In this document: one piece after another, positions 5,562 through 38,479 of the stretch
How positions within the stretch are numbered: position 1 is the stretch's first letter
How the letters are laid out: the number at the start of each line of letters is the position of its first letter
Assembly: GCA_902768715.1 (NCBI GenBank)
Contig: CACXMH010000013.1
Location: forward strand, 410-64,409
DNA: 64,000 nt
Direction of reading: 5' to 3'
Origin: Fibrobacter succinogenes
Lineage (GTDB): Bacteria; Fibrobacterota; Fibrobacteria; Fibrobacterales; Fibrobacteraceae
Program-made: the position numbers and the translations under genes
The notes under the pieces: generated by a model
What the model was told of the DNA's origin: nothing
What the model saw: the letters and a program-made list of their open reading frames with translations, nothing else
The model's database searches: none

Positions 5562-5660
5562 TGCAAAAAATCGCTTTTTTTTGAAAAAAATGTGTATTTT
5601 CCCGAAAAAAAGTGTAATTTTAGTGACAGAAAACGAAAAAACTATTACGGAGCCCCGAAA

Positions 5661-6401
5661 ATGAACAAAAAAATCCTTGGATTGTGCGCTATGGGCCTGC
5701 TTGCTGCCGGCCTTACCGCCTGTAACGATACGATGGACCCTAACGATCCCCAGTCCGTGCGTAAGTACTTGACGAAGCAGAAAATCGCCTTTACGCCGAA
5801 CCAGTTCGTGTCTTATGCGGTGAACAGCGATACCGCCAAGATGACCTTGTTCTTGCAGGCTTCTATGGAAATTGACGCCGCCGCCGACAACGGCAACAAC
5901 GCCGTGGCCATTGCCGCCAACAAGGGCAACGTGATGGTGCTGAACTATTTGTTCGACCACGGTGCAAAGGCTAACGTTCGTAACGGCAACGGTGAACAGG
6001 TGATTGACAACGCCGTGATGATGGGCAACAAGGAAGTGGTGACCCTGCTTCTGGCCCAGCTCAAGAAAGAAGGCGTAGATGTGCAGAACCTGGGCACGGC
6101 CGTGACCATTGCCGCCAAGACCGGCAAGGTGGACATGCTGGAACTGCTGGCCGACGCTGGCGCCCCCCTCGAAGTCAAGAGCCCCGATGGTTATTACCCG
6201 ATTCACCTGACGGTGAAGGGCGGTCACTACGACGCCATGATGTTCCTCATCAAGAAGGGCGTAGATGTGAACGTGAAGTGCGGCCAGGGCTATTCCGTGA
6301 TGGACTGGGCCAAGAACGAAGGCTACACCCGCCTGATCAAGGAACTGAAGAAGGCCGGTGCCAAGAACACCGCCGCCTACACCAAGGAATTCGGAAAGTA
6401 A
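5661..6401 (+). CDS. Ankyrin-repeat lipoprotein
   Basis: MNKKILGLCAMGLLAAGLTAC is a lipoprotein signal. It is followed by about 5 ankyrin-like repeats (e.g. GNNAVAIAANKGNVMVLNYLFDHGAKANV). Confidence 0.75.
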   Translation: MNKKILGLCAMGLLAAGLTACNDTMDPNDPQSVRKYLTKQKIAFTPNQFVSYAVNSDTAKMTLFLQASMEIDAAADNGNNAVAIAANKGNVMVLNYLFDHGAKANVRNGNGEQVIDNAVMMGNKEVVTLLLAQLKKEGVDVQNLGTAVTIAAKTGKVDMLELLADAGAPLEVKSPDGYYPIHLTVKGGHYDAMMFLIKKGVDVNVKCGQGYSVMDWAKNEGYTRLIKELKKAGAKNTAAYTKEFGK

Positions 6402-6422
6402 TTCCTGTCGATGTTTAAAAGG

Positions 6423-6451
6423 AAAAGTCCCGCAGAATGCGGGACTTTTTC
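6423..6451. terminator. Bidirectional intrinsic terminator
   Basis: AGTCCCGC agaat GCGGGACT with a 5' A-run and a 3' T-run, between convergent genes. Confidence 0.7.
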
Positions 6452-6586: not shown

Positions 6587-8473
6587 TTACAGCAGTTCTT
6601 CCAGGGTCTGGTAAAGGGTTTCGGCTTCGATGGGCTTGCTCAGGTGGGCGTTGAGGCCTGCCTGCAGGCTGTTCTGCACGTCTTCGTCGAAGGCGTTTGC
6701 GGTGAGGGCGATGATGGGGATGGTTTTCGCGTCTTCCCGGTCCATGGCCCGTATGGCGGCGGTGGCCTGCAGTCCGTCCATTTCGGGCATGCGAACGTCC
6801 ATAAGGATGGCATCGTAGTAGCCTGGCTTATGGTCCCTGAACATTTCTACCGCAATGCGTCCGTTTTCGGCATGCTCCACGTTGATTTTCCGCATAGAAA
6901 GAATCATGGTGGTGATTTCGGCGTTTACGGCAACGTCTTCGGCAAGCAGGATTTTGCGGCCTTCAAGGTCAACCTTCGGTTTGTCCGTTCCGTCCCCGTT
7001 TGCCGCGCCCTGTCCACGCTGTCCGGATTCTTTGCGGAAACTCTTTTGCAGCGTAACGGTAACGGTGAACTTTGAACCGAGTCCCTTTTCGCTTTCCACA
7101 TCGATGTGTCCGTCCATAAGTTCCACGAGGCTCTTGGTAATGGGCAGTCCCAGGCCCGTGCTCCCGTACTTGCTGCTAAAGGATTCGTCTTCTTGGGCGA
7201 AAGTTTCGAATATACGGGGCAAGAAATCGGCAGCGATTCCGATACCCGTATCTTCAATGATAAAGCGGAGGGTGCATTTCTTGTTGCTGGCGGGCTCGCT
7301 TTCTACGGTCATCTTGATGCCGCCTCCTTCGGGGGTGAACTTGACGGAATTCCCGAGGATGTTAATCAAGATCTGGCGCAGCTTCGTCTCGTCGCCGATG
7401 TAGTTGCCCAAGGCTCCCTCTTTCACCTCGTAATGGTAAAGGATGTCCTTGCTCTCGCATTGCCCCTGGATGATGTAGTTTACCTGTTCCAGGATTTTCG
7501 AAAGGGAAAACTCTTCGTTCTTGAGGGTCATGCTGCCGGAATCGATACGGCTGATGTCCAGGATGTCGTTGATGATGCCCAGCAGGTGCTGCGCCGACGC
7601 GCCGATTTTTTCCAGATGGTCCTTGGTGGACTTGGGAATGTTCTTGTCGGTCAGGGCGATGCTGTTGAGCCCGATGATGGCGTTCATGGGGGTGCGGATC
7701 TCGTGGCTCATCTTGGAGAGGAATATGGTCTTTGCCTTGTTCGCCTTTTCGGCGGTCTCTAGGGCCTCTTTCAGGGCCTCGCGGCTAACTTCAAGCTTGT
7801 GACGGTATTCTTCCTTTTCGTCTTCTAGCACATAGCTGTGCAAGAAACTGATGCCAAGCATGTATCCCATGGCGTAGAAGGGCCACAGCGGAAAGAAAAC
7901 CTGGAATAGGAGGAACACCGCCATGGCAAGGCCGAATAGCCCGATGGTCAGGTGCCGCTGCCGGACAACCCCCTCGGTTTTGGTGGTGGTGTACAGGGTG
8001 TAAATGGATGTCGAAAGGAACATGAGGATTTGCAGGGCCAGCGCCACATGGCGCATGTAACCGGTGTGGTAGCTTCCGTCGCTTTCGAACCAGAAAAACA
8101 CGGGGTAGAAGAAATTGAAGATGATGCCGGCAAGAACCAGCCAGAAAATGATTTGCCCTACATGCAGGAGCCATCGCTCAAAGAAGTTCTTGCGGTCGAG
8201 ATAGGAAACCACGTAGTGGGTCCACAGCATGACTGTGGCAATCATGGCCACAAAATAAACGGTAGTGTCTGCAAACAGGAGCTTGATAAGGTGGTACTCG
8301 TCCAGGATACCCCACAGCATGTCGGTCACGTAATACACAAGTACGCCAAAAAGGAATCGCCGGTAATACTTTTTGGTAGGGGCGTTTTCCGCTCCGTCCT
8401 GCGGGCGCAACACGTCGCGGTTACCGATAAGCAGCAGGATTGTTGCCAGAATGCCTATGATGGAGTATGTCAT
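6587..8473 (-). CDS. Hybrid sensor histidine kinase with a polytopic (about 7TM) membrane sensor domain and a C-terminal receiver
   Basis: The first ~230 aa are a hydrophobic multi-helix region. H-box [13 protein letters not shown]; N/G boxes NILGNSVKFT, DTGIGI, GSTGLGL; receiver ILLAEDVAVN...ILMDVRMPEMDG...LSKP. Confidence 0.9.
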   Translation of the reverse strand: MTYSIIGILATILLLIGNRDVLRPQDGAENAPTKKYYRRFLFGVLVYYVTDMLWGILDEYHLIKLLFADTTVYFVAMIATVMLWTHYVVSYLDRKNFFERWLLHVGQIIFWLVLAGIIFNFFYPVFFWFESDGSYHTGYMRHVALALQILMFLSTSIYTLYTTTKTEGVVRQRHLTIGLFGLAMAVFLLFQVFFPLWPFYAMGYMLGISFLHSYVLEDEKEEYRHKLEVSREALKEALETAEKANKAKTIFLSKMSHEIRTPMNAIIGLNSIALTDKNIPKSTKDHLEKIGASAQHLLGIINDILDISRIDSGSMTLKNEEFSLSKILEQVNYIIQGQCESKDILYHYEVKEGALGNYIGDETKLRQILINILGNSVKFTPEGGGIKMTVESEPASNKKCTLRFIIEDTGIGIAADFLPRIFETFAQEDESFSSKYGSTGLGLPITKSLVELMDGHIDVESEKGLGSKFTVTVTLQKSFRKESGQRGQGAANGDGTDKPKVDLEGRKILLAEDVAVNAEITTMILSMRKINVEHAENGRIAVEMFRDHKPGYYDAILMDVRMPEMDGLQATAAIRAMDREDAKTIPIIALTANAFDEDVQNSLQAGLNAHLSKPIEAETLYQTLEELL

Positions 8474-11286
8474 GCTTTTCTCCCGTCCAGTACCCGTGCA
8501 AGCGTTTTGATCATCAGCTTCACATCTACGGGTTTTGCGATGTGGGCCTGCATGCCTGCGTCTTCGGCGGCCTTTACGTCTTCGGCAAAGGCGTTTGCGG
8601 TCATGGCCACGATGGGGATTTGTGCCAGGGCCTTGTTTTCAAGGAGCCGGATGTTCTTGGTGGCGGTATAGCCGTCCATGACGGGCATCTGGATGTCCAT
8701 GAGAATCAGGTCGTAGTAGCCGGGAGCGGACTTTTCCACCATCTCCACGGCGGTCTTTCCGTTTTCGGCGGTTTCTACGGCAAAGCCTGTCTGCAAAAGG
8801 ATCATCTTTGCGATTTCCAGGTTCACCAGGTTGTCTTCTACCAGAAGCGCGCGCTTGCCTGCAAAGGAAACTTCGCTGGATGCGCCTTCGTCGGATTCTT
8901 CGGGCTTGTCGCCGCCGAACTTGAGCAGGTCTTCTTCGGTGGCGAGCTTGAACTTGACCCGGATAATGATTTCGGTACCGTTCCCGAGGGAGGTGAGCAC
9001 CTCGATGGTACCGCCCATCATATCGACGATGCTCTTGGTGATGGCAAGGCCGAGCCCGGTTCCTTCGGTACGGCTGTTGGTGGAACTCCTTTCACGTTCG
9101 AAGGCGGTGAAAATCTTGCCTACAAAGTCCTTGGACATGCCGATGCCCGTGTCCTGGATTCGGATTTCGTAGAAGCCGTAGCCTTCTTCGCCTGCTCCAA
9201 CTTCCCATAGGGACACGTTGACGCTCCCCCTTTCGGGAGTAAACTTGAAGGCGTTGGAAAGCACGTTCAACAGCACCCGGTTCAGGTTTTTCTTGTCGCA
9301 CCAGACCAGGTTGTTCTTGACCTGCGATAGATGCAGCTTGAAATCGATTTTTTTCTGCTTCATTTGTTCGGCGAACAGGTCCCGGATGCTCTCGAAAATC
9401 TTGCACAGGTCTTCGGGTGAAAATTCCAGCTCTACCTTGCCGCTTTCGATACGGCTCATTTCCAGAATGTCGTTGATGAGGGTCAGCAGGTGCTGGCTTG
9501 ACATGTCAATCTTTTTCAGGTAGCTGTGCAGGTTTTCGGAGGCAGGCTCCTTCATGGCCAGGTTGGTATATCCGATAATGGCGTTCATGGGCGTGCGGAT
9601 ATCGTGGCTCATGTTGAACAGGAACTGGCTCTTGGCAAGGCTCCCTTCTACGGCGCGGATTTTTTCTCGTTCCACCAGTTCGTTCTTTTTGCGGACCTGG
9701 TTTTGCACATACAGCATAACGATTAGACCGATAAAGACAATGGCAAGGAGCACTATGCCGGTAAATACCAGCGTGTCACGGGAAGCATCGTCGGTTGCCC
9801 TTGCATACAGGAACTTTGCCACCCACATGATGGCGGAATACAGGAGCAGGGCAAACAGCACCACGCCCGAGATGGACATGCCGCTGTATTCGGCGAGGGA
9901 ACTCCGGCGAATGGTGCTCCAGTAAAAGACAAAGCCCAGCAGGCACCACAGCGACAGGAGCAAGAAGGCTGCAGAACTCATGGCTTCCATGGCGGCAAGC
10001 CTGGGCACAAGCTGCACCACCACGAGGATAATGGATATGATAGTGCCGATACCGCCGGCCACACGAACTTTGGAGTTGTTTTCGGTCTTTGCGATTTTCC
10101 AGGCCGCAGCCGATACATAGCCGAACCCTACAATGGCGCCGAAGGATGTCAGATCTACAAACCAGTTCAGCGTGTTTCGGCCCAAAAGCGCAAGCACAAT
10201 GGAAATGACCATGATGAACAGGATGCTGTTGGTGGTCTTCGAGAATCCGTCAGAAAGGATACGGTCTTCGGCCATGGTAGAAAGGATGCGCACGATGGCG
10301 CGGTAACCGCCTATAAGCCCGGTCAAGATGGCGGCAACGGCAGTGATTCCCAGGACCACAAGGCCAAAGGGTCCCATAATCTCTTTTACCCCGTAGAAAA
10401 CGGGCACGGAAACGACCCCTTGTAGCGTGCCGATTTTGGAGACATAGTCACTCCAGGAGCTGAATCCTTCTGGAACAACGGCCACTCCTACCAGTGCAAT
10501 CGATATGTACGAAATGGCGGCCAGGATAATGGCGATGGCGATAATCCACTTGGACTTTGAGGGCGCAAACTTGAAGCGGTAGGTCTCGAAGCAGGCTACG
10601 TCAAAGCCCACAAAGGCCCACGGGGCAAGAATTACCAGGCTGAAAATGCCGTAAAACGGGTTCAGCCCGGCCGTACCGAAAATGGGGCCGCTCGTGAGGG
10701 CGCCTGTAGCGATGGCCTTGGGCAGGCAGATAATCCCGATAATGACAATTCCTATGAACAGGATCAGTGCGAAGAGGGTTTGCAACTTGTGCAAGATTCC
10801 CTTCAGGAGCAAGAATAGGGTTCCGACCACGGCGAGGCTCGCCACAGATACCATGGCCTCGGTAAGGAAAACCTGGTGCCCCGCTACCGTATAGCTGTAG
10901 CCGACTTGCAGGGTGTCGCCCAACAGGAGTCTCGCCACGATAAAAAGCGCGGTCGCGTTCAGGAAAACGACGGTCAGGTAAGAAAGGCACAGGAACCAGG
11001 AACAGAGAAAGGCGTGGTCACGGCCGAAGGCTTCCTTGGCGTAGGCGTACACACCGCCGGGCTGGCCGTTTCGACCCATCAGGTAAGAAAAATTGTAGCC
11101 TATCACCAGCATGATAGCCATACCCACCAGCATGGCGATGAGGGTTCCCAACGGGCCTGCCACCGGAAGGAACGTGGTCCCCGGCATCACGAATATTCCC
11201 CATCCGACCATGACACCGAAAGCCATGCCCCAGACGTCTAGGCGCGAAATGTATTTTGAAATTGCTGAATCCTTGTCTTGCAGCAT
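8470..11286 (-). CDS. Amino-acid/polyamine (APC-family) permease-like domain fused to a hybrid histidine kinase with receiver
   Basis: The N-terminal ~470 aa look like a 12-TM APC permease (GMAFGVMVGWGIFVMPG...GGVYAYAKEAFG). Extra TM helices follow, then H-box [14 protein letters not shown], an HATPase domain (DTGIGM, GTGLGLAI) and receiver LLVEDNLVN...[12 protein letters not shown]...IAKP. Confidence 0.8.
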   Translation of the reverse strand: MLQDKDSAISKYISRLDVWGMAFGVMVGWGIFVMPGTTFLPVAGPLGTLIAMLVGMAIMLVIGYNFSYLMGRNGQPGGVYAYAKEAFGRDHAFLCSWFLCLSYLTVVFLNATALFIVARLLLGDTLQVGYSYTVAGHQVFLTEAMVSVASLAVVGTLFLLLKGILHKLQTLFALILFIGIVIIGIICLPKAIATGALTSGPIFGTAGLNPFYGIFSLVILAPWAFVGFDVACFETYRFKFAPSKSKWIIAIAIILAAISYISIALVGVAVVPEGFSSWSDYVSKIGTLQGVVSVPVFYGVKEIMGPFGLVVLGITAVAAILTGLIGGYRAIVRILSTMAEDRILSDGFSKTTNSILFIMVISIVLALLGRNTLNWFVDLTSFGAIVGFGYVSAAAWKIAKTENNSKVRVAGGIGTIISIILVVVQLVPRLAAMEAMSSAAFLLLSLWCLLGFVFYWSTIRRSSLAEYSGMSISGVVLFALLLYSAIMWVAKFLYARATDDASRDTLVFTGIVLLAIVFIGLIVMLYVQNQVRKKNELVEREKIRAVEGSLAKSQFLFNMSHDIRTPMNAIIGYTNLAMKEPASENLHSYLKKIDMSSQHLLTLINDILEMSRIESGKVELEFSPEDLCKIFESIRDLFAEQMKQKKIDFKLHLSQVKNNLVWCDKKNLNRVLLNVLSNAFKFTPERGSVNVSLWEVGAGEEGYGFYEIRIQDTGIGMSKDFVGKIFTAFERERSSTNSRTEGTGLGLAITKSIVDMMGGTIEVLTSLGNGTEIIIRVKFKLATEEDLLKFGGDKPEESDEGASSEVSFAGKRALLVEDNLVNLEIAKMILLQTGFAVETAENGKTAVEMVEKSAPGYYDLILMDIQMPVMDGYTATKNIRLLENKALAQIPIVAMTANAFAEDVKAAEDAGMQAHIAKPVDVKLMIKTLARVLDGRKA

Positions 11287-11288
11287 AC

Positions 11289-13754
11289 CTATTTCCTATT
11301 CTCCGCTGACCAGATGAGCTCTTCGAGAGTCTGGTACAGGTGTTCCGGTTCCACCGGTTTCGAAAGGTGCGCGTTCATGCCTACCTGCAGGGAACGCTGC
11401 ACGTCTTCGTCGAAGGCGTTTGCGGTCATGGCCACGATGGGCACCGTCCGGGCATCGCTCCGGTCCAGGGCGCGTATGGCCCGGGTCGCTTCCAGACCGT
11501 CCATTTCGGGCATGCGGATGTCCATCAAGATGGCATCGTAGTAATTTTCGTTGCTCTTGGCGAACATGTCCAGTGCAATCTGGCCGTTTCCGGCGTGATC
11601 GACAATGGCGTCTTTTACCGTCAACAGTTCCTTCATGATTTCGGCATTGATGAGGATGTCTTCGGCCAGCAGGATATGCCGCCCGGCGAGGCTTGCACGG
11701 CATTTTTTCTTGAAAAGGTTCATGTTGTTTCGACGGGCGATACGTTCGAACTCGTCGATGACGTTGCTTGCAAAGAGCGGTTTCGCAAGGAAACTGTCCA
11801 CCCCGATATGCAGCGCCTCGTCCATGATTTCGTCCCAGTTGTAGGCGGTAAGGATAATCACCGTAGTCTCGTTGTCGTAACGTTCACGGATCTTTGTCGC
11901 CACTTCCAGACCGTCCATGTTGGGCATTTTCCAGTCCAGGAGCACCAGGTTGTAGGGTTCGTGCTTGGCGTGCTTTACCTCCAGCATCTGCAGGGCTTCT
12001 TCGCCGCTGGTGCTGGTGTCCGCCTTGATGCCCGCCTCATCCAGCACGAACCGCGCGTGTTCGCAGGCGATGGGGTCGTCATCGACGACCAGCACGCTGA
12101 TGTCGCGCAGGTTCACGTGGCCTATCGACACTACCTCGTGGTCGCAGTTCTTGAGGGTCACCACCACCGTGAATACGGAACCTTCGCCTTTCTTTGACCT
12201 TACCGAGATAGAACCGTTCATCATTTCCACGATGTTCTTGGTAATCGCCATGCCAAGCCCTGTGGAGCCGAACTTGTTCTTGCGGCTGGAATCTTCCTGG
12301 GTAAAGGAATCGAACACCTTCGGGATAAAGGATTCGTCCATGCCGATACCCGTGTCTTTCACCTCGAATTTCAGGGTGCTCTGGTCTTCGAACTGGGCCA
12401 CCTTGGAAATGGTAAGGGTGATGCTCCCGGGGGCTTCGGTAAACTTGATGGCGTTGCTCAAGATGTTGATGAACACCTGCTTGAGCTTCATGTCGTCGCC
12501 GATAAAGTAGTCGTCAACATGGCCCTCGATATGGCATTCGAATTTGAGGCCCTTGTCCGAGCACTGGGACATGACCATGGTGTTGATCTGCTCTAGCATT
12601 CCGGCAAAGGAGAACTCCTCCTTGCGCATCACCAGCCTGCCGGATTCGATTCGGCTCATGTCCAGAATGTCGTTGATGAGCCCCAGCAGGTGCCGTGCAC
12701 TCCCGCCAATCTTTTCCAGGTATTCCCGGGTCCGCTCCGAAATGGCCGGGTCTCTCAGGGCGAGGCTGTTGAGGCCGATGATGGCGTTCATGGGCGTGCG
12801 GATTTCGTGGCTCATGTTCGAAAGGAAGGCGGTCTTTGCCTTGCTGGCCTCTTCCGCCGCATCCAGCGCTTCGCCCAGGGCCTGGTTCTTGGCCATGGAA
12901 TCCCGCATTTCGGCATCGATGATGGTAAGCCCCATGCCTACCGCATGCACCATGTGGTCCTTGCGGTCTTCGGGGTGATGCACCCCTGCCATGCGGATCA
13001 TTTCGTAGTATTCCTTGCCGTCCCGGCGGGCCAGGTAGCGGTAGGCGATCAGTTGTTCGTTCTGGAGCGCCTCGCGGATGTTCGCGGGCTCGATGAACTT
13101 CAAGAATCCTTCGCGGTATTTTTCCGTAACGCAGTTGTTGCCGTAGTCCCGGAACCGTTCCAGGTAAGGGAAATGCACTCCTTCGGCGTGCTGGTGGTGG
13201 TCTTCGGGGTCGCCGCGGTAACAGACGGCGTCGTCCTTGTCGAGGTCCACGTGATAGACGCTTCGGTAGTCCGAGGCCATGGCGGTAATCATGCTGTCCA
13301 GCTGCGCCCGCTGTTTTTGGCCTTCCAACAGCTTCTGTTCAATCTGTTCGTGCTTTTCGGTAATGTCCGAAATAAACACGTAGTAGAGCCCGCCGTAGTT
13401 TTCGCTGTCGGCGTAGTGTCCGTAATCATCTACCCAACGGAGCTTTCCGTCTTTGCGCTTGATGCGGTACTCGACATAGTCCAGTTTTTCGCTTGATTTT
13501 ACGATTTGCTTGTTGATAGAGGACTGAATTTTTTCGTAATCCTCGGTGTAAACCATGCCCTTGAAGGTGAAACCGGTCAGTGACTTGAATTCGTCCAGGT
13601 CACGGCACCCGAAAATATCGAACACCGTGTGGTTTGCGTAGAGCAGTTCTCCATCACCTTGTGCCTTGTAGATGAAGAATCCACCGGGCATGTAGCGCCC
13701 GATGTCTTCTACGATGGACATGTTCTTGTCGTTCAGCTTGAAATGGTTGAACAT
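11289..13754 (-). CDS. Cytoplasmic PAS-domain hybrid histidine kinase with two receiver domains
   Basis: No TM segments. The N-terminus is PAS-like. H-box [14 protein letters not shown] and an HATPase domain are present. REC1 is VLVVDDDP...[12 protein letters not shown] and REC2 is [10 protein letters not shown]...[12 protein letters not shown]. Confidence 0.9.
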
Positions 13755-13777
13755 GGTTGCACCTTTCGGTTAAGTGT

Positions 13778-14119
13778 TTATGCGCACAGTTCCGACAGTT
13801 TGTCCCTGAGGTTAAGCAGTTCCGACACCATGCCGCTGTAATCCATTGCGGTACGGTTACGCAGGGGTTCAGTAATCTTTACCGCCATGTCGAACATGGG
13901 CGTGAGGGCTAGGTTCCCAAGGACCCCTTTCAGGGCATGGACCGCGTCGAAGGCCTCGTCCAGGTTGTTGCTCTCGATAGACGTCTTGAGCTTGTCAAAG
14001 TTCTTTTCGGCGGGGATTGTGGCTACCAGCCGTAAGTACAGCGCCTCGTTTCCCATGCAGCGGCCAAGACCTTCTTCGGTATTGGCGCCGAAGGCTTTTA
14101 GTTTTTCGATAGTAATCAT
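13778..14119 (-). CDS. Histidine phosphotransfer (Hpt) protein
   Basis: 113-aa helical protein with the canonical Hpt motif AVHALKGVLGNLAL. Confidence 0.85.
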   Translation of the reverse strand: MITIEKLKAFGANTEEGLGRCMGNEALYLRLVATIPAEKNFDKLKTSIESNNLDEAFDAVHALKGVLGNLALTPMFDMAVKITEPLRNRTAMDYSGMVSELLNLRDKLSELCA

Positions 14120-15819
14120 GGGGCGTTTCTCCTATATTCAAGTTCTTTCTCTATAAACTTTTTGAATTCCTCGGGCGGGACCGGCTTCGAGAAGTAATAT
14201 CCCTGAATGATACCGCAACCCATTTGCTTCAGGGTTTTCAGCTGGGAGTCGGTCTCTACGCCTTCGGCCACCGTGGGCACGTTCAGGAACTTGGCGATGT
14301 CGATGACCAGTTCCACCAGCTTCATGTTCCGTTCGTCTTTTTCCATGTTGCGGATGAACGACATGTCGATTTTCAAAATATCGATGGGGAGGCTCGTAAT
14401 CATGTTGAGGGAGGAGTACCCGGAACCGAAATCGTCCATCTCGATACGGAATCCTTTCTTGCGCAGGTTCTCTACAACCTCGATGAGCCTTCTTGCATTT
14501 TCGGAGTAGGCGCTTTCGGTAATTTCCAGCATGTATTCGCTGGGAGAAAGGCCGTTTCCCTTGAGGATGTTGTCCAGCTTGGATTCGAGACTCGGGTCCA
14601 GAATGTCGATGCGGGAAACGTTCACCGAGACGGGGACGGTGATTCCGAACTGTTCCTTCCACTTGCGGATCTGGGCGGCGGCTTCGCTCCACACGAAGTT
14701 ATCCACCTTCTGGATAAGCCCGTTGGATTCGAAAAGTGGGACAAAGTCACTCGGGCTCACGAACCCGAGTTTCGGGTGGTTCCAGCGGATAAGCGCTTCG
14801 GCGCTGGTAAGTCTCGGCGTGTCGCCCTCTATGTTGTACTTGGGCTGGAAATAGACCACCAGGTCCTTGTTGGCGATGGCTTCGGGCAGGTCGCGGATGA
14901 GGGTTTCTTCAAAAACATGCCTTGCGTGAATTTCATTGTCGTAGCGGGCGAGGGTATGGGTGTAGTCGCCCCGAATCTGGTCGCAGGCGATTTTTGCCCG
15001 GTCAAACCAGGCCTCTACTTCTACGTCTTTGGACACGTTTTCCCAAAGGCCGCAACGCACGCGGATGTTGTTCATCTTGAAATCGTTCAGCACGTTCAAG
15101 ATGGCCACGTGCAGGTCTTCGTAGTCGTCCTGATGGGCGGCATAGACATAGAAGGTATCTGCGTTTGCTCGGCAGGCCATGGCGTTCATGGCCGGCAGCT
15201 CCCTTTCCAGGGTTTCCGCTATTTTCGAAAGTAGCAGGTCGCCAAAGGGCCTTCCGCAGAACTCGTTCACCAGGTGGAATCGCTCGATGTCAATGACCAG
15301 CACGTCGCGGCTGGTGTCTGCATCCCAGCGCTCGATCTGGCGGATGTATTCAAAGAAATAGTCGTGGGTGTAGAGCCCCGTGACGGAGTCCCTTTCGGTC
15401 TGCTTGATGAGGCTCTGGCCTTCGAACAGCTCGATAATGCGTTCGCAGCGGGCAAGCACCACCTCGGGCATGTCAAAGGGTTTCTTGATAAAGTCTTCTG
15501 CACCCAGTTTCAGGCTCCTGACTTCGGATTCTTTTTCCGAGGTCATCACGATGACGGGAATCCGCTTAAGGGATTCGTCTTCGCTCCGCTTCTGCAAGAA
15601 CTGGAAACCGTCCATGACAGGCATGAGCAGGTCCAGCAGCACCAGGGAATAGCTGGAATCCTGCCTTGCAAGTTTTTCCAGGGCGTCTTTCGCGTTGTCG
15701 GCATAGCTGACCGTATATTCCTGCGAAAGGATATTCCCGAGTATCTCGCGGTTGATCAGTTCGTCATCTACGATGAGGACGTTCCTCTTGATGGTCCTGT
15801 TCTGTCGAAACTTTTTCAT
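14116..15819 (-). CDS. Response regulator: REC, degenerate GGDEF, and EAL (predicted c-di-GMP phosphodiesterase)
   Basis: REC: LIVDDE, LLDLLMPVMDG, IKKP. In the GGDEF domain the GG(D/E)EF site reads NADTF. The EAL motifs are intact (EALIRW, EITES, DDFGSGYSSL, KIDMSF, AEGVET, QGYYFSKP). Confidence 0.9.
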   Translation of the reverse strand: MKKFRQNRTIKRNVLIVDDELINREILGNILSQEYTVSYADNAKDALEKLARQDSSYSLVLLDLLMPVMDGFQFLQKRSEDESLKRIPVIVMTSEKESEVRSLKLGAEDFIKKPFDMPEVVLARCERIIELFEGQSLIKQTERDSVTGLYTHDYFFEYIRQIERWDADTSRDVLVIDIERFHLVNEFCGRPFGDLLLSKIAETLERELPAMNAMACRANADTFYVYAAHQDDYEDLHVAILNVLNDFKMNNIRVRCGLWENVSKDVEVEAWFDRAKIACDQIRGDYTHTLARYDNEIHARHVFEETLIRDLPEAIANKDLVVYFQPKYNIEGDTPRLTSAEALIRWNHPKLGFVSPSDFVPLFESNGLIQKVDNFVWSEAAAQIRKWKEQFGITVPVSVNVSRIDILDPSLESKLDNILKGNGLSPSEYMLEITESAYSENARRLIEVVENLRKKGFRIEMDDFGSGYSSLNMITSLPIDILKIDMSFIRNMEKDERNMKLVELVIDIAKFLNVPTVAEGVETDSQLKTLKQMGCGIIQGYYFSKPVPPEEFKKFIEKELEYRRNAP

Positions 15820-15831
15820 CGGGAATCTCCG

Positions 15832-18441
15832 TTATGGAATCATCGTTTCCAGGGTTTCAAAGAGGGTTTCGGGCTGCACGGGCTTTGAAAGGTGGGCGTT
15901 GAGGCCCGCCTGCAGGCTCCGCTGCACGTCTTCGTCGAAGGCGTTGGCCGTAAGGGCGATAATCGGGATTTTCTTGGCGTCGGCCCGGTCCATCTTTCGG
16001 ATGGCCATGGTGGCCTGCAAGCCGTCCATTTCCGGCATGCGCATGTCCATGAGAATGGCGTCGTAATAGCCTTCGGGCTGCTTGCTGAACATCTCCACGG
16101 CAATCTTGCCGTTTACGGCGATGTCCGTTTTCATGCCGCGCATTTCCAGAACGTTTTCCATAATCTGGGCGTTGACTTCTACGTCTTCGGCAAGGAGTAT
16201 GTGCCTGCCCTTCAGTTCCGCCTTTTTGCGGGAAGACTGTTCTGCGCTCCGTTTTTTCTTGAGCACGGTCTTGAATTCGTCCAGCAGCGCTCCCGTAAAG
16301 ATTGGCTTTGCGATAAAGCTATCTACGCCGGCCTGGATGGCCTCGTCCAGGATGTCGTCCCAGTTGTAGGCGGTTAGGATAATGATTGCCGACTCGTCGC
16401 CGGTGGTGGCGCGTATCTGCCTTGCGGTCTCTACGCCGTCCATCTCGGGCATCTGCCAGTCCACGATAATCAGGTTGAAAGGCTCCCTGCGGGCGTGGCG
16501 CAGCTTGACCATCTCCACGGCCTCCTTTCCGGAATTGGCCGTTTCGGTGGCGATTCCCGCCAGCTCCAGCACCAGCTTTGCATGCTCCAGGGCCACCGGG
16601 TCGTCATCGACTACAAGCACGCTCAGTTCGTTCAGGTTGATGTCGATGTCTCCGTTGTCCTTCTCGTGCTTTTTCGTAGAATCTTGCAGGGTGACGGTAA
16701 TGGTAAAGGTGGTGCCCTTGCCCTTTTCGCTTTCTACCTCGATGTTGCCGTTCATCAGTTCCACGATACTCTTGGAAATGGCAAGGCCCAGGCCAGAACC
16801 GCCATACTTGCTGGAACTGCTGGTGTTTTCTTGGGTAAAGGTCTCGAACAGCTTGGGCAAGAATTCCTTGCTCATGCCGATACCCGTGTCCTTGATGGTA
16901 AACCGGAGGGTGGACTTGCTGTTGAACGAGGCTGTCTTCTGGACGCTGAAATCGATGCTCCCGCCCTTGTTGGTGAACTTGACGGCGTTTCCGAGGATGT
17001 TGATGAGCACCTGTCGGAGCTTCATGTCGTCGCCTACGAAGTATTCGTCTATGTTTCCGACAAAGTGGCAGTTGTACTGGATTCCCTTTTCTTGACACTG
17101 CACGCTGAACATGGTGTTCACCTGCTCCATAAGCTTGGAGAAGGGGAATTCTTCGTTTTTCAGGGCGAACTTGCCCGATTCGATGCGGGACATGTCCAGG
17201 ATTTCGTTGATGAGGTTCAGCAGGTGTTCGGCGGAGCCTCCGATTTTTTGCAGGTAGTCCTTGACCTTGTCCGAAAGTCCCGGTTCATGGAGGGCGAGGC
17301 TGTCCAGCCCGATGATGGCGTTCATTGGGGTGCGAATCTCGTGGCTCATGTTGGAGAGGAATATGGTCTTTGCCCTGTTGGATTCTTCTGCCACCTTCAG
17401 GGCCTCGGACAGGGCCTCCCGCTTGATACGGTCCTCGGCTTCCTGGATTTCGTGCTGGAGCGAAACCCTTGTGGTGCGCCGGACATGCAAGATGATAAAG
17501 ACGAACATGGCGACGAGCACAAAGGCCGTTACCGCCGAAAGGAACTGGCTCCGGACGATGATTCCCGAAGAGATGCTGCCAATCTGGTTGCTGATGACAC
17601 TTTCCCGGATGAGGTAGGTGAGCATCCAGTCCGTGTTGTGGATGGGCACGTAGTACAGGGTCTCGCGAATGTTGTTGTAGGTGAACGAGACTTCGCCTTC
17701 GATGTGTCCGTTGAAATCGTCCTTTACCTTTTCAAAGGAATAGCCCATGTCGTAATCGGCGTGACTGAGGGCATTCAGCAGGTTGTCTTCGCTGGCAAGG
17801 CCTCCCAGCACCATGTTGGTGAGGGCTTTCCCGTCTTTGGTGTAGATGTTACAGAAGGTGGAGTTGTTGTTGCCTCCCTGCAAGGAGAGCCCTTCTAGCA
17901 GGTTCGGGATACTCAATTCCATGAAGCACACCACCAGGACCCGGTCTTCTAGGGGTAGCCGGTCAACGGGGATGGCGATGATGATGGTCTTGTTTTCGGC
18001 GCTTACGTTCTTGATGGAAATTTCGGGTTTCTGGAGGTTGTTGTAGTCGATGTTGTACAGTTGGATGTCGGTGCGGGTTCCACGGGAGGTGTAGATAAGT
18101 CCCGTAGTGTCCACGAAGGCAAACTTTTCGAGCCCGTAGAGCTGTTTCATACGGGCCTGGTAGGCCTGGAGTTTTTCGATGCTCTTGAGGTCGTCTTTTT
18201 CGATAAGGCCTATGGCGATGTCCATGTCGCTGATAAAGTCCGCAAGCCTTGCGGAAACCACCTGCTCGCGACGTTCGGCCAGTTCGTTCAGGTAAAGGAG
18301 GCTCACGCTCCTGACAGCCTTTTCGGTGTCTGCGCCGGCGCTTTTGCCGTTCCAGAAAGAGCCTACAATCAGAATGGCCGCTACAACGATTGCCGCCGTG
18401 ATGGCGGCCCGCATAATGCTGGCCTGTTTTTTTGATTCCAT
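15832..18441 (-). CDS. Hybrid histidine kinase with a periplasmic Cache-like sensor domain and two receiver domains
   Basis: Two TM helices bracket a ~270-aa extracytoplasmic domain. H-box [14 protein letters not shown] and an HATPase domain are present. REC1 is VLVVDDDP...IIVDWQMPEMDG and REC2 is ILLAEDVEVN...ILMDMRMPEMDG. Confidence 0.9.
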   Translation of the reverse strand: MESKKQASIMRAAITAAIVVAAILIVGSFWNGKSAGADTEKAVRSVSLLYLNELAERREQVVSARLADFISDMDIAIGLIEKDDLKSIEKLQAYQARMKQLYGLEKFAFVDTTGLIYTSRGTRTDIQLYNIDYNNLQKPEISIKNVSAENKTIIIAIPVDRLPLEDRVLVVCFMELSIPNLLEGLSLQGGNNNSTFCNIYTKDGKALTNMVLGGLASEDNLLNALSHADYDMGYSFEKVKDDFNGHIEGEVSFTYNNIRETLYYVPIHNTDWMLTYLIRESVISNQIGSISSGIIVRSQFLSAVTAFVLVAMFVFIILHVRRTTRVSLQHEIQEAEDRIKREALSEALKVAEESNRAKTIFLSNMSHEIRTPMNAIIGLDSLALHEPGLSDKVKDYLQKIGGSAEHLLNLINEILDMSRIESGKFALKNEEFPFSKLMEQVNTMFSVQCQEKGIQYNCHFVGNIDEYFVGDDMKLRQVLINILGNAVKFTNKGGSIDFSVQKTASFNSKSTLRFTIKDTGIGMSKEFLPKLFETFTQENTSSSSKYGGSGLGLAISKSIVELMNGNIEVESEKGKGTTFTITVTLQDSTKKHEKDNGDIDINLNELSVLVVDDDPVALEHAKLVLELAGIATETANSGKEAVEMVKLRHARREPFNLIIVDWQMPEMDGVETARQIRATTGDESAIIILTAYNWDDILDEAIQAGVDSFIAKPIFTGALLDEFKTVLKKKRSAEQSSRKKAELKGRHILLAEDVEVNAQIMENVLEMRGMKTDIAVNGKIAVEMFSKQPEGYYDAILMDMRMPEMDGLQATMAIRKMDRADAKKIPIIALTANAFDEDVQRSLQAGLNAHLSKPVQPETLFETLETMIP

Positions 18442-18477
18442 ATGGATACCCCCGATAGAGATTTCCTATGGAAATTA

Positions 18478-18511
18478 TAATAAAAGGAAATGCCCGCTCG
18501 GTGGCGGGCAT
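18478..18511 (-). terminator. Hairpin ATGCCCGC...GCGGGCAT followed by a T-rich tract on the minus strand, downstream of ilvD
   Basis: The minus strand reads ATGCCCGCcaccgaGCGGGCATttcctttt. The same hairpin type occurs at 39324-39343. Confidence 0.5.
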
Positions 18512-18560
18512 GACAATCCTATGTGTGACATTGCCGTTTTTACCCGACGTTGTCCAGCGT

Positions 18561-18639
18561 TGTCATCCCCGCGCAGGCGGGCGGACAGCACTTAGCACTT
18601 TAGTGCTTAGTGCGCATGGCCACCAAGGTGGGGATCTCC
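18561..18639. repeat. Composite repeat: GTCATCCCC...GGGGATCTCC module with an internal near-perfect hairpin
   Basis: TGTCATCCCCGCGCAGGCGGGCGG ... GCACTTAGCACT tt AGTGCTTAGTGC (18587-18612) ... GGGGATCTCC. It ends directly against the ilvD stop codon. Confidence 0.75.
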
Positions 18640-20391
18640 TTACTTCACACCAATCAGAGACAGGTCCCGCACGGCACCCTTGTCAGCGCTGGAGGCCATC
18701 GCAGCATAAGCCTGCAGAGCCTTGGACACCACGCGGTCGCGGTTTTCCGGCTGCCATGCCTTGGCGCCACGGGCTTCCATTTCCTTGCGGCGTTCAGCCA
18801 GTTCGTCGTCGGTGAGCTGCACGTTGATGCTGCGGTTCGGGATGTCGATTTCGATGACGTCGCCCGTGTGCACGAGGCCGATGTTACCCTTGTTGGCGGC
18901 TTCCGGAGAAGCGTGGCCGATGGAGAGGCCGCTCGTACCGCCGGAGAAACGTCCGTCGGTGAGGAGGGCGCAGGACTTGCCGAGGTGACGGCTCTTGAGG
19001 TAAGAGGTCGGGTAGAGCATTTCCTGCATGCCGGGGCCACCCTTCGGGCCTTCGTAGCGGATAACGACCACGTCGCCAGCCTTCACCACGTTCGGGTCGA
19101 GAATGCCCTTCACGGCATCTTCCTGGCTTTCGAACACCACGGCAGGGCCGGTGAACTTGAAGATGGATTCATCGACGCCGGCGGTCTTCACGATGCAGCC
19201 ATCCACGGCGAGGTTACCGTAAAGAACAGCGAGGCCGCCGTCCTTGGTGTAGGCGTGTTCGCCGTCGCGGATAGCGCCTGTAGCGCGGTCGAGGTCGTGG
19301 TCGGGGTACATGAAATTCTGCGAGAAGGCGACCAGGTTGTACTTGCGGCCCGGGCCAGCGAGGTAGCGCTGCTTGGCTTCGGCGGTCGGGTTACGCTTGA
19401 GGTCGTTCACTTCGAGGGCTTCGCCCATCGTAGCGGCGTGAACGGTCTTTGCATTCTTGTGGATGAGGCCCATGCGGTCGAGTTCGCCCATGATACCCAT
19501 GATGCCACCGGCGCGGTTCACGTTTTCGACGTGGATGTTGTGGACCGTCGGGGCTACCTTGCAGATGCACGGCGTGTTGCGGGAGAGGCGGTCGATGTCC
19601 TTCATGGTGAAATCGACACCCGCTTCCTGGGCGACGGCGAGCAAGTGGAGCACGGTGTTGGAGGAACCGCCCATGGCGATGTCGAGGCGCATGGCGTTTT
19701 CAAAGGCGTCCTTCGTGGCGATGCTGCGCGGGAGGATGCTGTCGTCGTTCAAGTCGTAATACTGGTGGCAGAGTTCCACGATACGCTTACCGGCGGCTTC
19801 GAAGAGCTTCTTACGTTCGGCGTGGGTGGCAACAATCGTGCCGTTGCCCGGGAGGCTAAGGCCCAGGGCTTCGGTCAGGGAGTTCATGGAGTTTGCGGTG
19901 AACATGCCGGAGCAGGAGCCGCAAGTGGGGCAGGAGTTGGCTTCGATGGCGGCCACTTCTTCGTCGCTTACAGAGCTGTCGGCGGAATCGATCATGGCGT
20001 CAATCAGGTCGAGGGCGCGGTCCTTGCCGTCCTTCGTGGTCACGTGGCCAGCTTCCATCGGGCCACCAGAGACGAAGATTGCCGGAATGTTGAGGCGCAT
20101 GGCGGCCATGAGCATGCCCGGAGTCACCTTGTCGCAGTTGGAGATGCACACGAGGGCGTCGGCGCGGTGCATTTCCTTCGCGACACCGCCGGCGGCTTCG
20201 ATCGCGCGGGCGACAACCTGGCCCAAGTCCTTCAGGTGAACGTGGCCCGGAACAAACTGGGTATAGCTGTTCACCACGCAAATCACCGGCTTGCCAAAGT
20301 CTTCCACCTTGGTTCCTGTTGCGTGCCAAAGGGCGCGTGCACCGGCCATTTCACGGCCTTCCATAGTCTTGAGCGAACGAAGTTTCGGCAT
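18640..20391 (-). CDS. ilvD: Dihydroxy-acid dehydratase, E. coli-like, but missing the conserved [14 protein letters not shown]...segment
   Basis: Near-colinear with E. coli IlvD as I remember it (MPK.RS...[63 protein letters not shown]). About 36 residues are absent after GGVAKE. Confidence 0.85.
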
Positions 20392-20412
20392 AATAGTTCC
20401 TTGTGTTTAAAA

Positions 20413-20485
20413 GATGTCATCCTCGTGAGAGAATGTCATCCCCGCCCGTTCGGCTTGCTCAGGGCAGGCTCCGGCGGGGATCTCC
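20413..20485. repeat. GTCATCC-family repeats (two heads) with an ATCCCCGCC...GGCGGGGAT long hairpin and a GGGGATCTCC tail
   Basis: gatGTCATCCtcg... aatGTCATCCCCGCC cgttcggcttgctcagggcaggctcc GGCGGGGATCTCC. The loop shares gctcagggcaggct with 50966-51013. Confidence 0.75.
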
Positions 20486-20536
20486 TATACGTTGCGCAAT
20501 AATGTAGCAAAAAAGGGGAGGAACGCTCGAATACAA

Positions 20537-25279: not shown

Positions 25280-25353
25280 CGGGATGTAGCTCAGCCTGGT
25301 AGAGCGCTTGAATGGGGTTCAAGAGGTCGCTGATTCGAATTCAGTCATCCCGA
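25280..25353 (+). tRNA. tRNA-Pro (anticodon GGG)
   Basis: Manual cloverleaf: acceptor CGGGATG/CATCCCG, D-arm GCTC-AGCCTGGTA-GAGC, anticodon arm CTTGA-ATGGGGT-TCAAG, T-arm GCTGA-TTCGAAT-TCAGT, discriminator A. Confidence 0.9.
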
Positions 25354-33198: not shown

Positions 33199-33279
33199 GC
33201 CCCAATGATAGAAAAAATATCTTTGGCGGGGCGAATCCCTTTACAGGGTGCGTTTTTTTATTAAATTTGGAAAACTCTC

Positions 33280-36985: not shown

Positions 36986-38479
36986 ATGACGGAACTGTCG
37001 TCAGCGTTGATTTATTTGGGAAGCGCCTTGATGCTTCTCAACATTGTCCGCTACATTCTGCTGGAACGGGTTGTTCTCAGGTCAAACTACTGGGACAAGG
37101 GCCGCGGTCCTCTCCACATTCCTTTGGCGCTGTTGGTCCTGTTCCTTCTGGGTTACCTTGCAGTGGGGTACGTGGGAACTCACGACAACGTGGTCCCATC
37201 CATCCTCTTTGGCGGGAGCCTTTTTGTGTTCCTGATTCTCTCCCTGATGAAGATTGTCCTTAAAAAAGTGGAAGAGGGGGAGGAACGTATCGGGGCGGTC
37301 CACAAGGACCTGAATGCGGAAAAGAAGGAACACGAGGCCAAGTCCGCATTCCTTTCTAACATCGGTCACGATATCCGCACCCCCATGAACGCGATTATGG
37401 GCTGTGTCGCCCTTTGCAAAAGGGAAGACGCCACCTTGCCCGAAATCAGGGAGAATGCGGCCAAGATAGAGCGCTCCTGCCAGCATCTGCTGTCGCTGGT
37501 GAACGACGTGCTGGAAATGAGCCGCCTGGAAAGCGGAAAAATCGAGGCGGAAGAATCCGCCCTGGACTTAAGGGAAATGGTGTCCGGCTGGCAAGAAACC
37601 TTTGCTCCCCGGATGCAGGAGAAGAACATCGACTTCACGGTGGATTGCGCCAGCATAAAAGATTCCCAGGTCATTTGTTCCCGCCAGGGCTTCAACCGGG
37701 TCGTCATGAACCTCTTGAGTAACGCCTGCAAGTTTACGCCCGATGGTGGAAAGGTTTCCTTGAAACTTTCCGAAAAGCCGTCGGAAAGGGAAGGCTTCGG
37801 CCTGTATGAATTGCGGGTGAAGGACAACGGAATCGGCATGACCGAAAGCCTTGTGAGCCGCCTGTTCGACGCCTTTGAAATGGAACGTTCCTCTTCGTTG
37901 AGCGGTGTCCAGGGCGTGGGTCTTGGAATGGCCATCACCAAGCGTATCGTGGACCAGATGGACGGAAAAATCCAGGTGCAGAGCCAGTCCGGAAAGGGGA
38001 CGGAGTTCGTGGTGACACTCCCCATGCGCCTGCAGTCGGCCATGCAAGCCCAGTGGGGTTCCGATTTGCCGAACTGTCCGGTGAATTTTGCGGGCAAGAG
38101 AATCCTTCTGGTGGAGGACATGGTTGTCAATCGGGAGGTGACCGGATTGATTCTGAAAAACATGGGCTTCGAAGTGGAATTTGCGGCGAATGGGGAAGAG
38201 GCGGTCTACAAGCTGTCCAGTGCCCATCCCGGCTACTACGACATGGTCCTGATGGATATCCAGATGCCCGTCATGGATGGTTACGAGGCCACCCGCCGGA
38301 TCCGCCGTCTCGGCAATGTGGAGCAGGCCTATGTCCCCATCGTGGCCATGACGGCCAATGCCTTTAGCGCAGATATGGAAAAGGCCATGGAGGCGGGAAT
38401 GAACGCCTACGTGGCCAAGCCTATCGATGTAGCTGTTCTTGAAAAGACCCTGGCAGGAATTTTCGGGAAGAAAACTTAG
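36986..38479 (+). CDS. Hybrid sensor histidine kinase (2 TM, HisKA, HATPase, receiver), orphan
   Basis: H-box [13 protein letters not shown]; [24 protein letters not shown]; receiver [10 protein letters not shown]...[12 protein letters not shown]...VAKP. Confidence 0.9.

Follow-up and report, generated by a model that had tools for sequence, protein, structure and literature searches.

A probable six-gene operon of Fibrobacter succinogenes predicted to relay four sensory inputs through one phosphotransfer protein to a cyclic di-GMP phosphodiesterase

In a 64,000-nt stretch of Fibrobacter succinogenes DNA (the window; counts given for it hold within these 64 kb only), a cluster of six genes (6587–18441) encodes four hybrid histidine kinases (HK1 to HK4), a single histidine phosphotransfer (Hpt) protein, and a single response regulator (RR) that combines a receiver (REC), a degenerate GGDEF, and an EAL domain. 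We consider it reasonably probable, and the best explanation of the data, that these genes form a multi-input His-Asp-His-Asp phosphorelay in which many kinases would signal through one Hpt to one EAL regulator. The operon would be a Fibrobacter version of a modular cassette that is common among Clostridia of the rumen and gut and whose constant RR and Hpt core appears to gain or lose kinases.

Fibrobacter is one of the principal degraders of cellulose in the rumen and, to digest fiber, has to adhere to it. In F. succinogenes S85, the cyclic di-GMP (c-di-GMP) level on cellulose is about 2.5-fold higher than that on glucose (PMC6851124). The operon offers a concrete, testable route by which four types of cue could lower c-di-GMP in a Fibrobacter lineage.

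Four hybrid kinases, one Hpt, and one regulator

The products of the six genes, in order of transcription, are:

15832..18441, minus strand: HK1, 869 aa; first transmembrane helix (TM1), periplasmic region of predicted dCache fold, TM2, HisKA (His367), HATPase_c, REC1 (Asp661), REC2 (Asp799).
14116..15819, minus strand: RR, REC-degenerate GGDEF-EAL, 567 aa; Pfam matches EAL 233 bits, REC 83 bits, GGDEF 45 bits (partial).
13778..14119, minus strand: Hpt, monodomain, 113 aa; PF01627, 31.6 bits against a cut-off of 24.6; His61 in HALKG.
11289..13754, minus strand: HK2, 821 aa; PAS_3 (aa 25–133), a stretch of ~150 aa without a Pfam match, HisKA (His316), HATPase_c, REC1 (Asp607), REC2 (Asp745).
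8470..11286, minus strand: HK3, 938 aa; APC permease (aa 14–462), ~3 extra membrane helices, HisKA (His561), HATPase_c, REC (Asp864).
6587..8473, minus strand: HK4, 628 aa; seven-helix membrane sensor (aa 1–229), HisKA (His257), HATPase_c, REC (Asp559).

The six open reading frames (ORFs), all on the minus strand, have 869, 567, 113, 821, 938, and 628 codons in this order. Gaps of 12, 23, and 2 nt follow HK1, Hpt, and HK2, respectively, and 4-nt overlaps join RR to Hpt and HK3 to HK4. Independent public gene calls on several rumen metagenome contigs with an identical RR give the same six products in unchanged order.

By their domain content, HK1 to HK4 are hybrid kinases (HisKA, HATPase_c, and REC) with no Hpt domain of their own, Pfam finding PF01627 in none of them. 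HisKA (PF00512) matched all four with 62–71 bits, and the H-box begins with SH(E/D) and carries an intact phospho-accepting His, with one 13-residue form in HK1, HK2, and HK4 and another in HK3. HATPase_c (PF02518) matched with 88–109 bits, its N(I/L)L(G/S)NA.KFT, DTGIG, and G(S/T)GLGL boxes being visible. Each of the four also has REC (PF00072), with two copies in HK1 and in HK2; the Asp of the terminal receivers (D799, D745, D864, and D559) lies within LMD(M/I/V)(R/Q)MP(E/V)MDG, and the acidic-pocket, Asp, Thr, and Lys positions are intact in every kinase receiver, including the internal REC1 of HK1 and HK2. No kinase reached any curated NCBIfam cut-off, nor did RR or Hpt. The names TorS, BarA, LuxQ, and ArcB were rejected for the kinases, as the similarity is generic to hybrid kinase cores and below these cut-offs (246–349 against 1200 for the LuxQ model).

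The four sensor modules showed no mutual similarity at E<1e-3, whereas the kinase cores and receivers do resemble one another. The periplasmic region of HK1 had no Pfam match even at E<=10, PF02743 included. An AlphaFold2 (AF2) model of this sensor (aa 33–292, nt 17566–18345; pLDDT 85, built on 47 relatives) showed a long helix at the N-terminal end and, after it, two alpha/beta modules of the PAS type, placed between two membrane helices, which is the organization of a dCache domain. Foldseek searches of the PDB gave an integrative full-length chemoreceptor model as top match (E 1e-11), the remainder being mostly at E 1e-10 to 1e-7, and the matches listed are dCache ligand-binding domains, including those of McpH, Tlp3, Mlp24, PctA, and TlpC. 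The N-terminal 326 residues of HK1 have 397 relatives; those listed are ~50–63% identical, apart from three at 78–100% that are fragments of the same or a near-identical protein, and those with a named source come from rumen Lachnospiraceae, Selenomonadaceae, and Oscillospiraceae. Among the 120 homologs listed, five (53–59% identical) carry a precomputed PF02743 (dCache_1) match, and one is named a cache domain protein. The HK1 sensor is thus Cache-like, with a dCache fold according to its model.

HK2 is cytoplasmic, having no membrane segment, and its residues 140–290 gave nothing usable in Pfam at E<=10. The N-terminus of HK3 is, by profile match, a full permease domain of the APC superfamily: AA_permease_2 (PF13520) scored 61.3 bits against a cut-off of 27 over aa 14–428 (profile of 427 positions), and PF00324 also matched with 27.4 bits; together with the hydropathy profile, this indicates about 12 membrane helices. 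HK3 belongs to a large, well-conserved Clostridial family with 782 relatives, and almost all the full-length proteins among the best 120 share the order APC-HisKA-HATPase-REC over ~930 aa. These best 120 are 59–64% identical over the permease, except for one match at 94%, and the relatives bear only the NCBI name "amino acid permease", which hides the kinase part.

The HK4 sensor (aa 1–229, nt 7787–8473) was modeled with seven membrane helices and a short extracytoplasmic beta-hairpin at aa 127–137 (AF2 pLDDT 88.8, pTM 0.85). Pfam gave no meaningful match to it at E<=10, the lone match being DUF6526 at E 5.5, and curated models of the described bacterial seven-transmembrane (7TM) families (7TMR-DISM, 7TMR-HD, MASE, etc.) gave no match either. 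Foldseek against the PDB returned weak, generic seven-helix bundles (eukaryotic G-protein-coupled receptors and similar; E>=1e-3, TM about 0.5); homology to these was rejected, and the likeness is read as shared topology given the weak E values. Of the 105 relatives of the sensor, some are proteins of 402 aa that carry this module on a GGDEF in place of the kinase. This fusion suggests that the N-terminus behaves as a true sensor module. It looks like an undescribed membrane sensor domain common to kinases and cyclases.

A predicted receiver-controlled EAL regulator with a degenerate GGDEF

The Hpt start codon overlaps the RR stop by 4 nt. Judged by its Pfam match and its motif, the product is a monodomain Hpt phosphotransfer protein, and the H..KG motif is kept in 20/20 of the Hpt genes neighboring RR homologs. 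The RR motifs were read from an alignment to the GGDEF-EAL structures of MorA and 5m3c together with 31 family members from the fetched loci. The REC domain (aa 14–121) contains Asp18/19, Asp63, Thr93, and Lys113, and the receiver Asp is invariant in the 31 family members. The GGDEF domain (aa 143–300) gave a partial Pfam match only (profile positions 3–111 of 161); NADTF replaces the GGDEF signature, the first metal-binding Asp is a Glu, and none of the 31 family members (0/31) has GG(D/E)EF at this site. RR thus lacks the residues of a cyclase and should not be filed as a diguanylate cyclase.

The EAL domain (aa 309–546), conversely, has EAL.R, N400, E432/E435, DDFGSGYSS, K483, E519/E522, and Q539, and its signatures (EAL.R, N, E..E, the DDFGSGYSS loop 6, K.D, EGVE, and QG) are kept in essentially all 31 family members, the exception being one Ser in place of the Arg of EAL.R. 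From its residues, RR is predicted to be a catalytically competent EAL c-di-GMP phosphodiesterase. Its closest solved relatives are the active enzymes MorA, MucR, and DosP, and also RocR, LapD and FimX being more distant. The Asn and the C-terminal Asp of the GGDEF nucleotide-binding region are mostly kept in the family, which makes allosteric nucleotide binding by the degenerate GGDEF conceivable. The N-terminal half of RR (REC and degenerate GGDEF) matched 934 clusters at 50% identity with E<=1e-30. These data point to an old family of phosphodiesterases under receiver control, in which the cyclase domain is dead and may be regulatory. One REC-GGDEF-EAL protein of F. succinogenes, FSU_0748, has been described as cellulose-induced and as an orphan without a kinase operon (PMC6851124); given this description, it is probably a different gene from RR.

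Only one Hpt and one stand-alone receiver protein are encoded in the window, and both lie between the kinases. An earlier note on this DNA had anticipated much of this architecture. Its domain assignments agree with the Pfam run and, for the Cache-like and 7TM calls, with the structure predictions; motif inspection bore out the phospho-His box and receiver Asp in all kinases, and pairwise comparison (E<1e-3) the paralogous cores joined to unrelated sensors. The degenerate GGDEF and EAL output that it proposed are visible in the NADTF signature and the complete set of EAL catalytic signatures. The pairing of kinases lacking an Hpt with a single Hpt and a single stand-alone regulator was found by Pfam to hold within the window, and the six minus-strand ORFs, with 4-nt overlaps or gaps of <=23 nt, are exactly as it described.

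Boundaries of the probable transcription unit

Strong hairpins were found at the two ends of the cluster:

18490..18511, minus strand: upstream terminator-like hairpin and U-rich tract after ilvD; dG -16.6 kcal/mol, z -3.65; upstream unit boundary.
6413..6449, minus strand: intrinsic-terminator-like hairpin and U-run, with a 12-bp stem at 6423–6449; dG -18.2 kcal/mol, z -7.28.

Both are far more stable than shuffled sequence (z -3.7 and -7.3). The first follows the upstream neighbor ilvD (18640–20391) and leaves a leader of ~50 nt before the HK1 start; the second marks the downstream boundary and also serves a convergent ankyrin-repeat gene. A folding scan of the largest internal gap of the cluster (23 nt) against shuffles found no hairpin. 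Given the tight packing and the strong hairpins only at both ends, the six genes are likely to form one transcription unit. A sigma-70 promoter scan was uninformative for Fibrobacter, its number of hits equaling the shuffle expectation. The Rfam search of the HK1 leader found no element at gathering score, the best match being a sub-threshold Trp_leader (20 bits against 41), and a riboswitch or leader element upstream of HK1 was rejected on this ground.

The ankyrin-repeat gene (5592–6401, plus strand), unusual for a bacterium, converges on the operon and is its constant downstream neighbor in all Fibrobacter loci seen.

Relatives of the cassette in other phyla

The closest RR loci come from three Fibrobacter metagenome-assembled genomes (MAGs), with RR 93%, 85%, and 85% identical. 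The next-best relatives (48–56%) are found in rumen Clostridia, Lachnospiraceae, Oscillospiraceae, Anaerovoracaceae, and Treponema. Among the 34 loci examined, ~19 (in Clostridia, Treponema, and Bacilli) have an Hpt gene near the RR homolog, usually directly adjacent, and the neighborhood usually also includes from one to four hybrid kinases belonging to the families seen in the operon. An Oscillospiraceae locus (L089) reads GGDEF / regulator / APC-kinase / Hpt, and a Clostridia locus (L087) reads APC-kinase / GGDEF / regulator / dCache kinase / 7TM kinase, the APC-kinase being an HK3 ortholog in both. In Eubacterium barkeri VPI 5359 (L021, 9983–16585), a single ORF of 2200 codons encodes REC-GGDEF*-EAL-REC-GGDEF-PAS repeats-HisKA-HATPase_c-REC (the asterisk denoting a degenerate domain), a Rosetta-stone fusion of regulator and kinase.

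The fusion ORF is followed by two more PAS hybrid kinases, and as the organism is cultured, the system could be studied there. Most Clostridial relatives (L087, L089, and many Lachnospiraceae and Oscillospiraceae loci, L018–L030) have a longer regulator, in which REC-GGDEF*-EAL is joined to a further GGDEF, matched in full by Pfam, and often to a second REC; these may be bifunctional. The short form of 560–570 aa occurs in Fibrobacter, Treponema, and some Clostridia. Literature searches returned no description of this cassette, of APC-fused kinases, or of Clostridial Hpt-linked REC-GGDEF-EAL regulators, and no experimental work on the RR and Hpt core or the APC-kinase family.

Variation in kinase number among Fibrobacter genomes

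The sister Fibrobacter genomes keep the HK1-RR-Hpt core and the flanks on either side of the locus but differ in the number of kinases, which is one (L010), three (L008), or four (the window and L007). In L010 (Fibrobacter MAG SRR873595_bin.6), HK1-RR-Hpt is followed directly by the same terminator, the ankyrin gene, and the SLT/LysM gene; compared with positions 4739–4862 of this locus, positions 6587–13778 of the window hold 7.2 kb with HK2, HK3, and HK4, a clean presence/absence difference. L008 (Fibrobacter MAG RGIG5144) has the order HK1-RR-Hpt-HK2-HK4, with HK3 missing. Its junction (14276–14536) aligns both to the end of HK2 (window 11284–11543) and to the end of HK3 (window 8470–8716), so that HK3 was probably gained or lost by recombination between homologous receiver-coding segments. 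L007 matches the window over all the sequence available, its contig ending inside HK4.

Over window 11515–13714 and L008 12063–14300, the HK2 DNA is 96–99% identical, while RR, Hpt, and the HK1 sensor alongside are at ~77–87% and the last ~220 nt of HK2 at ~84–88%. This pattern indicates that a recent recombination tract replaced HK2 between Fibrobacter lineages.

Two other differences from L008 were observed. The region 18309–18508 of the window (hairpin, leader, and first HK1 codons) is 98% identical, while the 200 nt upstream of it are essentially unalignable (37%) and the HK1 sensor is at about 78–88%; this peak could reflect either a conserved regulatory region or another recombination tract. 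L008 also encodes, between HK4 and the ankyrin gene (16541–19591), an extra secreted repeat protein of 1016 aa that the window lacks.

Receiver classes and origin of the kinase set

The cores of HK1, HK2, and HK4 share 54–60% mutual identity and their terminal receivers 66–72%. The terminal receivers are better conserved than the cores, and the REC1 domains of HK1 and HK2 form a class of their own, with 27–33% identity to them; this pattern would be expected if the terminal receivers had one docking partner in common. In helix alpha-1, the terminal receivers and the RR receiver carry a (V/I)N.(E/Q)I pattern that is absent from REC1 and resembles that of Hpt-docking receivers such as Sln1. HK3 stands apart, with 39–44% identity to HK1, HK2, and HK4 over the core and 47–49% over the receiver.

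The earlier note had explained the kinase set by local tandem duplication followed by sensor swapping. This origin is rejected, since Clostridial relatives are as close to the kinases as their operon neighbors are, or closer. Compared with full-length Clostridial APC-kinase orthologs, HK3 is 63% identical over the APC domain, 71–75% over the core (against 39–44% to its neighbors), and 63–79% over the receiver. The HK2 core is 68% and 64% identical to those of Clostridial kinases, against 59% and 54% to those of HK1 and HK4. One Clostridial kinase of 770 aa has an HK4-like 7TM module (56%), receivers of both types, and a core equally close to HK1, HK2, and HK4 (64–65% identity). The paralogs and their sensor-core combinations thus predate this genome: sensor shuffling on a common core is real for the HK1/HK2/HK4 subfamily, but it did not arise here by tandem duplication.

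From the distribution of the cassette and the identity values, we infer transfer between phyla, with Bacillota as the likelier source given the breadth of the cassette there. Recent horizontal import as judged by composition was rejected for want of any signal, the GC content at third codon positions (0.68–0.76) and the codon usage of the operon genes (correlation of 0.70–0.85 with other window genes) being in the range of host genes.

Proposed relay and competing explanations

In the proposed relay, HK1 would sense a periplasmic small molecule at its dCache domain, HK2 a cytoplasmic signal at its PAS domain, HK3 would read the occupancy or conformational state of its APC-type permease domain, and HK4 would sense through its membrane-embedded 7TM module. 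Each kinase would autophosphorylate on its H-box His, and its own C-terminal receiver Asp would then take the phosphoryl group. The single Hpt (His61) would collect phosphate from the terminal receivers and pass it to Asp63 of RR, which would change, and probably raise, the c-di-GMP phosphodiesterase activity of the regulator. Unstimulated kinases could drain the relay backwards through the same Hpt, and REC1 of HK1 and HK2 would probably be an intramolecular modulator or a phosphate sink. As c-di-GMP rises on cellulose in F. succinogenes, the physiological output is likely to be adhesion or surface behavior. What the locus shows directly is its gene order, its domain content, the intact catalytic and phospho-acceptor residues, and a neighborhood conserved in relatives; co-transcription, each phosphotransfer step, the sign of the regulation, and this output are what we infer from it.

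Convergence on the Hpt and RR is the best-supported of the mechanisms considered, in view of the Clostridial contexts, the fusion, the Fibrobacter series, and the receiver classes. The many-to-one reading, already put forward in the earlier note, gains comparative support from the neighborhoods of RR and Hpt, from the E. barkeri fusion, and from the Fibrobacter loci with one, three, and four kinases. Several points weigh against it. The sign of the regulation is a guess, because the effect of phosphorylation on EAL regulators differs between known systems. HK3 is of a different kinase subfamily by both core (39–44%) and receiver (47–49%) and, being so distant, may prefer another partner. One Clostridial HK3 ortholog (L091) is an orphan and L087 has no Hpt within 10 kb, so the kinases are not strictly dependent on a neighboring Hpt gene. 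"One Hpt, one output" describes the window only, and other Hpt proteins or targets are possible. A fifth hybrid kinase, moreover, is encoded elsewhere in the window:

36986..38479, plus strand: HK5, 497 aa; small membrane sensor of 2–3 helices, HisKA-HATPase_c-REC; 18.5 kb away, with no partner gene beside it.

HK5 is the closest relative of HK3 in the window (core 47% and receiver 58% identical) and might feed the same Hpt as an additional input, although it is uncertain whether it belongs to the system.

Such a kinase without an adjoining partner is what would be expected of a branched network, in which the Hpt would be a hub that also serves receivers elsewhere, kinases elsewhere (e.g., HK5) would feed it, and the EAL regulator would be one of several outputs. 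Clostridial relatives of the kinases do occur both with and without a neighboring Hpt or regulator, and Hpt hubs are known, as HptA of the Roc system contacts several regulators (PMC12051241). However, no feature of the cassette is better conserved from phylum to phylum than the adjacency of RR and Hpt, whose stop and start codons often overlap. This speaks for a dedicated pair, and the window has no other receiver or Hpt gene; we regard a branched network as unlikely. We find it more doubtful still that only HK1, RR, and Hpt are dedicated to each other and that HK2, HK3, and HK4 are later passengers, signaling elsewhere or acting mainly as phosphatases or phosphate sinks. One sister Fibrobacter (L010) does have HK1-RR-Hpt alone between the same flanks, HK3 is of the different subfamily whose Clostridial members can be orphans, and HK2 was exchanged between Fibrobacter lineages independently of its neighbors (96–99% against about 80% for the flanks). 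The added kinases nevertheless occupy the part of the unit between Hpt, which they follow immediately, and the terminator, their junctions being gaps of 2–23 nt or 4-nt overlaps; in Clostridia, these kinase families are likewise clustered with this regulator family; and the terminal receivers of HK2 and HK4 are 66–72% identical to that of HK1.

The nature of the output was also weighed. RR might be a c-di-GMP- or GTP-binding sensor or scaffold, like LapD and FimX, whose partner contacts are switched by phosphorylation, rather than primarily a phosphodiesterase: its GGDEF is degenerate in the whole family and yet retained, and LapD and FimX are among its more distant structural relatives. But every residue class that separates active EAL enzymes from degenerate receptors is kept in essentially all 31 members, and the closest solved relatives (MorA, MucR, DosP, and RocR) are active enzymes, making this reading highly improbable. 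We also formulated a wider reading that takes three proposals jointly: a plug-in cassette moving horizontally across phyla, HK3 as a transceptor coupling the transport state of an amino acid (or related solute) to c-di-GMP turnover, and an unannotated 7TM family common to kinases and diguanylate cyclases. Its mobile-cassette part draws on the kinase number of one, three, or four, on HK2 at 96–99% between flanks of about 80%, and on Clostridial kinase orthologs at 56–75%; the three together are offered tentatively, as a possible rather than a probable reading.

Significance

To a specialist of two-component systems, the architecture of the operon is unsurprising, and what deserves follow-up is the cross-phylum cassette, the kinase series, the APC-kinases, and the 7TM sensor. 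The link between c-di-GMP and growth on cellulose in Fibrobacter (PMC6851124) strengthens the case. Its most unusual parts are the family of APC-permease-fused kinases and the unannotated 7TM sensor. The RR and Hpt core, with hundreds of relatives, and the APC-kinase family, with 782, are both abundant in gut Clostridia. With one, three, or four kinases attached to an identical core, the Fibrobacter loci would be a ready-made system for studying how new inputs are wired into a phosphorelay without cross-talk.

Other features of the window

The window also encodes a Fib_succ_major domain protein, a secretin, TonB/TolB-like proteins, and a GH45. Long ORFs (578–724 codons) at 18610–20502 (plus strand), 4053–6227 (minus strand), and 39941–41677 (plus strand) run antisense to ilvD, the SLT/LysM gene, and an acetolactate-synthase-like gene, respectively; they have no Pfam matches and are most likely not genes. 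At gathering score, Rfam matched two tRNA genes (25280–25353 and 33280–33352, plus strand) and nothing else in the window. The second of them falls within a listed ORF of 327 codons (32603–33586, minus strand) that has no Pfam match and is probably not a gene.

Comparison with known systems

At the level of gene content within the window, the operon matches two many-to-one relays, the Pseudomonas HptB pathway (PA1611, ErcS', and SagS to HptB to HsbR) and the Vibrio relay of LuxN, LuxQ, and CqsS to LuxU to LuxO. In both, several hybrid kinases without an Hpt domain and with different sensors converge on one monodomain Hpt and one regulator, and the kinases can reverse and act as phosphatases. 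Their outputs, however, are a phosphatase/anti-sigma-antagonist (HsbR) or a sigma-54 activator (LuxO) and not a c-di-GMP phosphodiesterase, and their kinases are scattered on the chromosome, whereas those of the operon are packed together. By analogy, the operon would work like the LuxU and HptB relays but is not a member of either, given its degenerate GGDEF-EAL output and the lack of NCBIfam orthology.

The Roc network of Pseudomonas aeruginosa, through its RocS4-HptA-RocR3 branch (PMC12051241), has a hybrid kinase, a separate Hpt, and a receiver-EAL phosphodiesterase as one output, and several of its kinases converge on shared regulators. It differs in that RocS1 and RocS2 are unorthodox kinases that include an Hpt domain themselves, and in that the RocR-type regulators are REC-EAL proteins without a GGDEF remnant, whereas RR has one between REC and EAL. 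The Roc genes are also dispersed, with transcription factors as co-outputs, and both the sensors and the phylum are different. RR is not an ortholog of RocR or PvrR: it scored 214.8 against a cut-off of 580 with the NCBIfam PvrR model, and the match spans the EAL part only.

The H-NOX-linked system SiliHK-SiliHpt-SiliDGC of Silicibacter, for which the relay was shown biochemically and phosphorylation alters the enzyme activity (PMC4436077), resembles the operon in leading from a hybrid kinase through a stand-alone Hpt to a receiver-domain c-di-GMP enzyme. It differs by its single, H-NOX-controlled kinase input, its cyclase output, and the absence of a multi-kinase gene cluster. The operon is orthologous to none of these relays, as every NCBIfam equivalog score falls far short of its cut-off and the output has another architecture. 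The tandems of PdeA, MorA, and DosP have a GGDEF before the EAL as RR does, but the RR tandem is additionally placed under a receiver and linked to an Hpt. Caulobacter PdeA/CC3396 is a phosphodiesterase with a degenerate GGDEF followed by an EAL, in which the dead cyclase domain is regulatory.

Among the kinases, HK1 and HK2 have the domain order of Caulobacter ShkA (HisKA-CA-REC1-REC2; PMC6969517), whose internal receiver is regulatory and whose downstream Hpt, ShpA, is separate. The REC1 of ShkA is, however, a degenerate pseudo-receiver involved in c-di-GMP-dependent activation, whereas REC1 of HK1 and HK2 keeps all the phospho-acceptor residues. Fusions of a transporter to a sensor kinase have been described with SSS and with Amt domains (PMC5764959; PMC11109136). 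CbrA and CrbS (SSS/SLC5) and Ks-Amt5 (Amt; PMC5764959) have, like HK3, a complete transporter domain N-terminal to a histidine kinase, an arrangement that could let kinase activity report on the binding or transport of a substrate. HK3 differs from them by its APC-superfamily domain, by having no STAC linker, and by being a hybrid kinase that would feed an Hpt relay.

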